A stretch of DNA of 64,000 bases from Eledone cirrhosa (taxonomy: Eukaryota). The notes beneath the pieces are model-generated. The model did no database searches. It saw only the letters and a program-made list of their open reading frames with translations, and was not told where the DNA came from. The DNA lies in assembly GCA_964016885.1 (NCBI GenBank), contig OZ024743.1:165478001-165542000 (forward strand), in the 5' to 3' direction. Positions 41,478 to 42,081 of the stretch are shown here, one piece after another (positions within the stretch are counted from its first letter, which is position 1; each line of letters starts with the position of its first letter). Both the position numbers and the translations under genes were made by a program.

Positions 41478-42081
41478 GTATGTATACGTACATACATATA
41501 TGTATGCAGACGTACAGTAGCATGTACATACATACATACATGTACACATATATATATATGTACGCATGGTTCTACCGAACATTTATTATAATGTTCGGTT
41601 TGTTTGTAAACAAACATCCCGAATTAAGCAGTGTTCGGTAACCATCGTTGCCCTTTTGTTCAACACTGACAAAGAAATGATGAACTAGTTTCTAGCTTAT
41701 TAGCTGTCATCAGCACCGTATACCTTCCTGTCAATCGATTGAACGTTTGAAAGTATATACTTTCCTTATACATATTAACGGCTGAGCAGCCTAATTTGCA
41801 TATCAAGTGAGTTAGTCGGCCGGGCGTACCGAACATTATAATAAATGTTCGGTAAACCCTTACGTACATATATATATGTGTACATGTATGTATATACATA
41901 CTACTGTACATCTGTATACATATATGTATGTACGTATACATACTTATATTTAAGTATCAGCCGTACTAAGAGTGAGAAATGAAATTTCATTTTTTCCATT
42001 TATCGTTTTCGGTACACCCGCCCGACTAACTCACTCGATATGCAAATGAGGCTGCTCAGCCGTTAATATGCATAAGGAAAG
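41478..42081. mobile_element. Retrozyme-like element family B, two permuted segments joined head-to-head
   Basis: Interlocked inverted repeats (41478-41600 vs 41828-41944; 41760-41833 vs 42008-42081) surround an internal HHR. Confidence 0.7.
41679..41717 (-). ncRNA. Canonical type I hammerhead ribozyme (GUU site)
   Basis: The motif is GGTG-CTGATGA-CAGCT(AATA)AGCTA-GAAAC-TA-GTT-CATC, with distal stem I pairings TGACA/TGTCA and GTTCAA/TTGAAC. Confidence 0.88.

Follow-up and report, generated by a model that had tools for sequence, protein, structure and literature searches.

A small hammerhead-bearing unit, probably inserted as two interlocked, head-to-head arms, between microsatellites of Eledone cirrhosa

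How do two pairs of inverted repeats come to interlock within a single short locus? The question is raised by positions 41478..42081 of a 64,000-nucleotide stretch of DNA from Eledone cirrhosa (the whole stretch is hereafter called the window), where the first-pass annotation had read the segment order A-X-B-A'-Y-B'. Self-BLAST confirms this order and returns two inverted pairs that interlock, A with A' (identity in 112 of 128 columns with 6 gaps; E 1e-35 when the 620 nt are compared with themselves) and B with B' (69 of 74 positions identical), and both X and Y are single copy within the window (Table 1). The segments add up to a unit of 234+180 nt, that is 414 nt when counted with A' and 420 nt when counted with A, in agreement with the roughly 415 nt that had been proposed. 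Sequence comparisons of the unit were made within the 64-kb window, and the place of Y in the unit is read from this one locus. I consider it probable that the locus goes back to one event, long past, in which a small hammerhead element without coding capacity was inserted, either a non-LTR retrozyme or a non-autonomous Penelope-like element (PLE), mobilised by the reverse transcriptase of a PLE.

Table 1. Positions of the features discussed, numbered from the first letter of the window.
Feature	Positions	Strand	Basis or remark
5'-truncated, frameshifted Penelope-like remnant	25808..27661	+	inverted 285-nt end, 46-nt tail
310-nt hammerhead unit with 38-nt direct redundancy, ends in (TA)n	40738..41085	+	hammerhead at 40890
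(TA)n microsatellite, presumed left target flank	41359..41477	.	TRF 41359-41505
Segment A, TA-rich 3' part of left arm, with hairpin 41574-41599 at its beginning	41478..41599	-	inverted match to 41828-41943
Segment X, holds the putative hammerhead	41600..41759	-	without second copy in the window
Putative decayed type I hammerhead	41658..41744	-	descriptor; no match in Rfam
Segment B, 5' start of left arm	41760..41833	-	inverted match to 42008-42081
Head-to-head junction, 6-nt overlap common to both arms	41828..41833	.	alignment registers
Segment A', 5' start of right arm	41828..41943	+	inverted match to A
Segment Y, joins A' to B'	41944..42007	+	single copy
Segment B', 3' end of right arm	42008..42081	+	inverted match to B
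(GA)n/(GT)n microsatellite, presumed right target flank	42082..42312	.	TRF 42080-42312
319-nt hammerhead unit, partial tandem with inverted 38-nt tail	55200..55677	+	hammerhead at 55499

The insertion is composed of two arms. The left arm, 356 nt long, reads B-X-A leftward on the hammerhead strand up to its end in (TA)n, and the right arm, 254 nt long, reads A'-Y-B' rightward up to its end in (GA)n. In unit coordinates, the 3' end of the right arm, in B', lies 138 nt downstream of the 3' end of the left arm, and the homology between A and A' ends at 41478/41943. The locus holds one hammerhead and implies 1.2 units. No further step is needed to explain the interlock, which follows from the length of the left arm: its 356 nt extend beyond the boundary of the unit and, as 420 minus 138 is less than 356, re-enter the 74 nt covered by the end of the other arm. 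Apart from microsatellite read-through, the element contains no open reading frame of 120 aa, and no target site duplication is readable in the flanking microsatellites. Five further (TA)n(GA)n compound microsatellites occur elsewhere in the window, so that an empty target site of this kind would be ordinary here. The boundary between B and X, which is precisely the point at which the right arm stops, is spanned by a perfect 16-bp palindrome (41749-41764). To the left, between the neighbouring 310-nt element and the insertion, a non-repetitive island of 200 nt (41160-41358) lies between two (TA)n tracts; it has no match within the window.

An internal region complementary to both termini is also described for DIRS elements (PMC8969392), and this likeness raises the possibility of a non-autonomous DIRS-type element, or of a MITE with fixed ends. 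However, the internal order is B followed by A', which is opposite to that of the DIRS internal complementary region on either strand, and self-BLAST shows no match between the two termini, A and B', so that there are no inverted terminal repeats of the kind that a DIRS element or a MITE would carry. Neither type of element explains the hammerhead. Chance or an assembly error could be put forward as well, but a divergence of 7-8% between the arms is too high for an assembly duplication, and this whole group of explanations is scarcely credible. The divergence is 8.2% between A and A' and 6.8% between B and B', and the numbers of substitutions (10/122 and 5/74, respectively) do not differ in a comparison of low power (Fisher p 0.79). 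Equal divergence in both pairs is what one insertion event predicts, though the test has little power.

The two arms meet in an overlap of 6 nt, TTCGGT, and an overlap of at least 6 nt occurs at 0.13% of the 53,502 position pairs of the two arms (P about 0.0013). The junction had been placed on the microhomology TTCGGTA; the overlap is real, but its seventh base fits B only. It had further been placed within a hairpin, and a 26-nt hairpin is indeed present, but it is found in both A (41574-41599) and A' (41828-41853) and is therefore intrinsic to the unit and not created by the join. The hexamer TTCGGT is present four times per unit, so the site of the overlap is not unique. An octamer, ATGCAAAT, that had been listed as a feature of the unit has to be dropped, as it occurs twice in the window (in both B copies) where 4.74 occurrences are expected by chance; it is at chance level and carries no weight.

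The position of the junction at the foot of this hairpin, in a unit that contains TTCGGT four times, is what a rearrangement at the DNA level could have used: a direct partial-tandem copy would have been inserted, and a later template switch during replication at the TTCGGT hairpin would have duplicated B in inverted orientation and flipped Y-A. Microsatellite flanks are unstable, which would favour such an event. A later duplication of B should, however, leave B and B' closer to each other than A and A', and the two divergences given above are not separable at the low power of the comparison. Two other elements in the window, described below, show the same inverted-arm build with junction overlaps of their own, and this build is the usual form of PLE insertions as reported in PMC3846280 and PMC8557442. 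I regard the template switch as improbable.

A second possibility is that the head-to-head arms stem from two separate insertions of one family, or from dual priming, in which each of the two nicks primes on an RNA molecule of its own. Segment A was copied twice, a duplication of 122 nt, whereas classical twin priming of L1 leaves an internal deletion; dual priming has been proposed for L1 and is described as inseparable from twin priming by sequence (PMC2837659). No target remnant is left between the arms, and this absence, together with the 6-nt overlap, argues against independent events; the PLE remnant in the same window likewise duplicates 285 nt in its inverted arm. Dual priming within one event would be a mere variant of the preferred explanation, and as a distinct account this one seems quite improbable. 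Thirdly, a single cDNA may have folded back on an internal complementary hexamer and copied itself. Self-priming has been inferred for head-to-head PLE junctions (PMC3846280), and the hexamer at the 3' end of the right-arm cDNA is able to pair where Y and B adjoin. In that case, X and A should follow in the right arm, and its 3' end should be the same as that of the left arm, but the right arm stops at B' and no X comes after it, and since the arms start at different positions of the unit, the centre is not a mirror palindrome. Fold-back is very improbable on these grounds.

The preferred reading, one insertion of a hammerhead element, rests in part on the motif in X. On the minus strand, the boxes CUGAUGA (41713-41707) and GAAA (41692-41689) are followed by a GUU triplet, with the predicted cut at 41683/41682; these conform to the type I core, in which CUGANGA, GAAA and UH succeed one another and are combined with helices I and II. 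The minus-strand hammerhead of the first-pass annotation thus has its core motif in place, but the motif is imperfect and Rfam is blind to it. Helix II has 4 bp with a C.A at its base and lacks the closing pair G10.1-C11.1. Helix I is a 6-bp helix in which five of six pairs are formed, four of them contiguous, with one C.A and two G.U, and it is closed further out by an internal loop and a long distal extension. Helix III is palindromic (ACUAGU). The build that the motifs of the window have in common is the canonical one of metazoan type I hammerheads as described in PMC4209133. A mismatched pair at the base of helix II has been described for HHR_Amex2 of the axolotl, and a U.U variant is reported as natural and active in this animal (PMC7229834); the neighbouring 310-nt unit carries a U.U at this position.

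Rfam returns no match at gathering score in the window, and none of its 81 weak matches, TA-rich miRNA models below threshold, is a hammerhead; at gathering score it likewise passes over the two better-preserved motifs of the window. A descriptor written for type I hammerheads of the dimer type, relaxed after the three motifs had been seen, finds three matches in the window (40890+, 41713- and 55499+) against one in 200 shuffled windows. All three motifs have a distal extension of helix I, a 6-bp helix I and a palindromic helix III that differs between them (ACUAGU, ACGCGU and ACAGAUCUGU), and two of the three share a spacing of 14 nt between the boxes and the same UAAUAA loop. The motifs at 40890 and 55499 have perfect 6-bp helices I, GUA and GUC triplets and fold z-scores of -5.6 and -4.2, respectively, and the one at 40890 (GUA, z -5.6) looks intact. 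The hammerhead region of the interlocked insertion alone folds no better than shuffled sequences (z -1.1 and -1.3), and its active fold costs 6.2 kcal/mol. Its credibility comes from the two similar motifs in the same window; judged by its sequence, the motif at 41713(-) looks like a decayed, dimer-dependent member of the type I hammerheads, and as a ribozyme it is probably weak or dead.

The elements that carry the two other motifs are informative with respect to the insertion form. The 319-nt unit is present with a redundancy of 124 nt (55235-55677, 88%), and its direct arm ends in (TA)n. At the 5' end of this element lies an inverted piece of 38 nt (55200-55237, 92%) which overlaps the direct arm by 3 nt and starts in the unit where the 3' end of the direct arm stops. 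As far as can be read from these letters, this is a clean signature of two-site priming on a unit that appears to be of the retrozyme type. An inverted arm was not found in the neighbouring 310-nt element. The 310-nt and 319-nt units are about 76% alike and start at different phases, and the two elements hold 1.1 and 1.4 units, respectively. The Penelope-like remnant has an inverted 285-nt end that is 97.5% identical and continues into a tail of 46 nt. It is flanked by (TA)n on either side and has, near 27420, a hammerhead-like core whose helix II is long. One piece of its open reading frame resembles GIY-YIG and HTH_animal clusters in the Atlas, a lead drawn from families named on 11-55% of the cluster members; Pfam gives no match in three PLE-like ORF pieces. 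Three of the four hammerhead-bearing elements in the window therefore consist of two arms placed head-to-head, with 3' ends 38, 46 and 138 nt apart on the RNA, and the inverted-arm signature of PLEs is carried by two of the three small hammerhead units. A near-perfect palindrome of about 220 bp (55676-55900) follows directly after the 319-nt element; it has only an 11-nt word in common with Y (E 0.05).

Between the 414-420-nt unit and the two small units there is no significant similarity (best E 0.15, for X+B), and with the end of the PLE remnant it shares TA-rich words only. Kinship in sequence with the two small units was considered and rejected, as the similarity is not significant and a three-way alignment does not register the cores. 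Since sequence similarity is lacking, the unit is linked to the other elements by architecture only. A second copy of the unit is absent from the window, and metagenome and viral contigs contain no true match. One exact metagenome match to the B motif (L001) covers 25 nt only, in unrelated, bacterial-looking coding DNA, and was rejected as chance; a scan of viral contigs with the same motif gave 0 matches.

In its architecture, the insertion combines two known kinds of element. The unit of 414-420 nt is non-coding, carries a type I hammerhead and has no LTR, PBS or PPT. Metazoan non-LTR retrozymes are likewise non-coding units near 400 nt with low GC content; units of 150-450 bp have been reported, with 350-390 bp in mussel (PMC7229834; bioRxiv 10.64898/2026.07.22.740005). 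Shared with retrozymes are also the type I hammerhead with a 6-bp helix I, a 4-bp helix II and a short palindromic helix III, and the co-occurrence with PLEs. Retrozymes are described as head-to-tail arrays with two or more hammerheads; this locus has one decayed hammerhead, and its two arms stand head-to-head. The unit likely belongs among the retrozymes.

The form of the insertion has its counterpart in PLEs, which are reported to favour microsatellites and to insert as partial tandems truncated at the 5' side; many of these insertions have an inverted 5' copy and, at one end, a tail of 30-40 bp (PMC8557442). In a rotifer element, the inverted 5' copy overlaps the direct copy by 15 bp, and head-to-head placement is described as usual (PMC3846280). 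The 5'-truncated head-to-head arms, the short overlap, the different 3' ends and the presumed microsatellite target are thus common to the present locus and to PLE insertions (PMC3846280, PMC8557442, PMC11167929), and in both the hammerhead precedes the 3' end by about 200 nt (205 nt in the present case). However, the 3' ends are offset by 138 nt here against 30-40 in PLEs. This is far longer than tails of 30-46 nt, and it is not a standard tail. There is no ORF, and owing to the small size of the unit the arms extend round it and become interlocked. The PLE hammerhead is of the minimal type with a long helix II and G10.1-C11.1 (PMC4209133), whereas the one found here is of the retrozyme type. 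An autonomous Penelope-like element was rejected, as an ORF for reverse transcriptase and GIY-YIG is missing. The likeness to L1 twin or dual priming (PMC2837659) is that microhomology would join the ends of two cDNAs, each of them primed on a different strand of the target; in contrast to L1, there is no poly(A) and no readable target site duplication, the join has left a duplication instead of an internal deletion, and the template would have been tandem or circular. In its mode of insertion the element resembles a PLE, and in its build a non-LTR retrozyme unit.

These features suggest the following course of events. A PLE protein acting in trans may have introduced a nick into each strand of a compound microsatellite, (TA)n(GA)n, and reverse transcription could then have been primed from each nick on an RNA of more than unit length, with the order B-X-A-Y-B. 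The ends of the arms are separated by 138 nt and lie, in both cases, immediately ahead of a TA-rich tract; these two points would be the priming sites. Purified PLE protein is reported to cleave and extend both target strands and to start reverse transcription at two internal RNA sites, the spacing of which equals the tail (PMC11167929). The cDNA from the distal site would have copied B, Y and A, which are the contents of the 254-nt arm, and the cDNA from the proximal site A, the uncleaved hammerhead and B, as contained in the 356-nt arm. The 3' ends of the two cDNAs, which share the 6-nt overlap, may then have annealed over it and been filled in, after which the copy would have decayed. The earlier proposal of two cDNAs that were copied from a circular or tandem RNA and joined head-to-head accordingly keeps its main part, as the geometry, the overlap and the two elements of like build in the window all agree with it.

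The stress that was laid on a circular monomer finds no support over a linear, uncleaved tandem transcript. The left arm crosses the predicted cut at 41683/41682, which excludes a cleaved linear monomer as the template, unless the reverse transcriptase jumped. A circular RNA is allowed but not needed, and I consider it rather doubtful; the locus is accounted for just as well by an uncleaved tandem transcript that comprises 1.2 units and a single hammerhead. The partial-tandem form (1.1 and 1.4 units) is also the form of the 310-nt and 319-nt elements. Dimer-dependent hammerheads, as described in PMC4209133, would leave a transcript with one hammerhead uncut, and unprocessed RNA was the main substrate of the PLE protein in vitro (PMC11167929). 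In mussel and coral, on the other side, retrozyme circles are reported to be abundant (PMC7229834). The left arm folds with z -3.4 when read on the hammerhead strand and with z -4.8 when read on the opposite one; as this folding is not specific to the strand, it was rejected as support for a circle. That the locus is the fossil of one circular retrozyme monomer, copied twice onto both target strands by a PLE reverse transcriptase, is unlikely.

If this circular reading were true, the locus together with the 319-nt element would provide evidence from insertion sites that PLEs mobilise retrozymes, and would mean that the inverted copy plus tail of PLEs arises by twin priming at two start sites of reverse transcription. 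The link between retrozymes and PLEs is in print on the basis of co-occurrence and pLTR phylogeny (PMC7229834; bioRxiv 10.64898/2026.07.22.740005), and how PLEs make tandem and inverted insertions is named as an open question in PMC8557442. Inverted insertions are not discussed in the main text of PMC7229834, where the word 'inverted' is absent, nor in bioRxiv 10.64898/2026.07.22.740005, where it occurs only in a reference. Among titles and the beginnings of abstracts outside subscription papers, I found no paper describing an inverted insertion form for retrozymes. The element is of a known kind, and its form agrees with the known insertion behaviour of PLEs when the inserted hammerhead unit is short; it hints at the enzyme by which hammerhead RNAs are moved. 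Taken alone, the locus is one decayed copy of a common repeat class. Short units do, however, make the mechanism countable, as the starts and ends of arms can be mapped on a circle of 300-420 nt across thousands of copies.

As regards the remainder of the window, TRF finds it rich in long (TA)n, (GA)n and (GT)n tracts. A tandem duplication at 616-1602 has a period of 494 (85%), with related sequence at 224-615 and 49948-50350, and the descriptor finds no hammerhead in the duplication. Several LINE-like open reading frames bear a reverse transcriptase, and Pfam matches to RVT_1 were obtained in two of the four proteins tested. An L1/Tx1-like LINE family is present in several copies (42679-48169, 57596-63300 and 10250-21900) that are about 65-79% alike, with a zinc-knuckle ORF1 and a reverse transcriptase in ORF2. 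A further, frameshifted LINE at 51231-54305, which I take to be RTE-like, has C2H2-like zinc fingers at its C-terminus.
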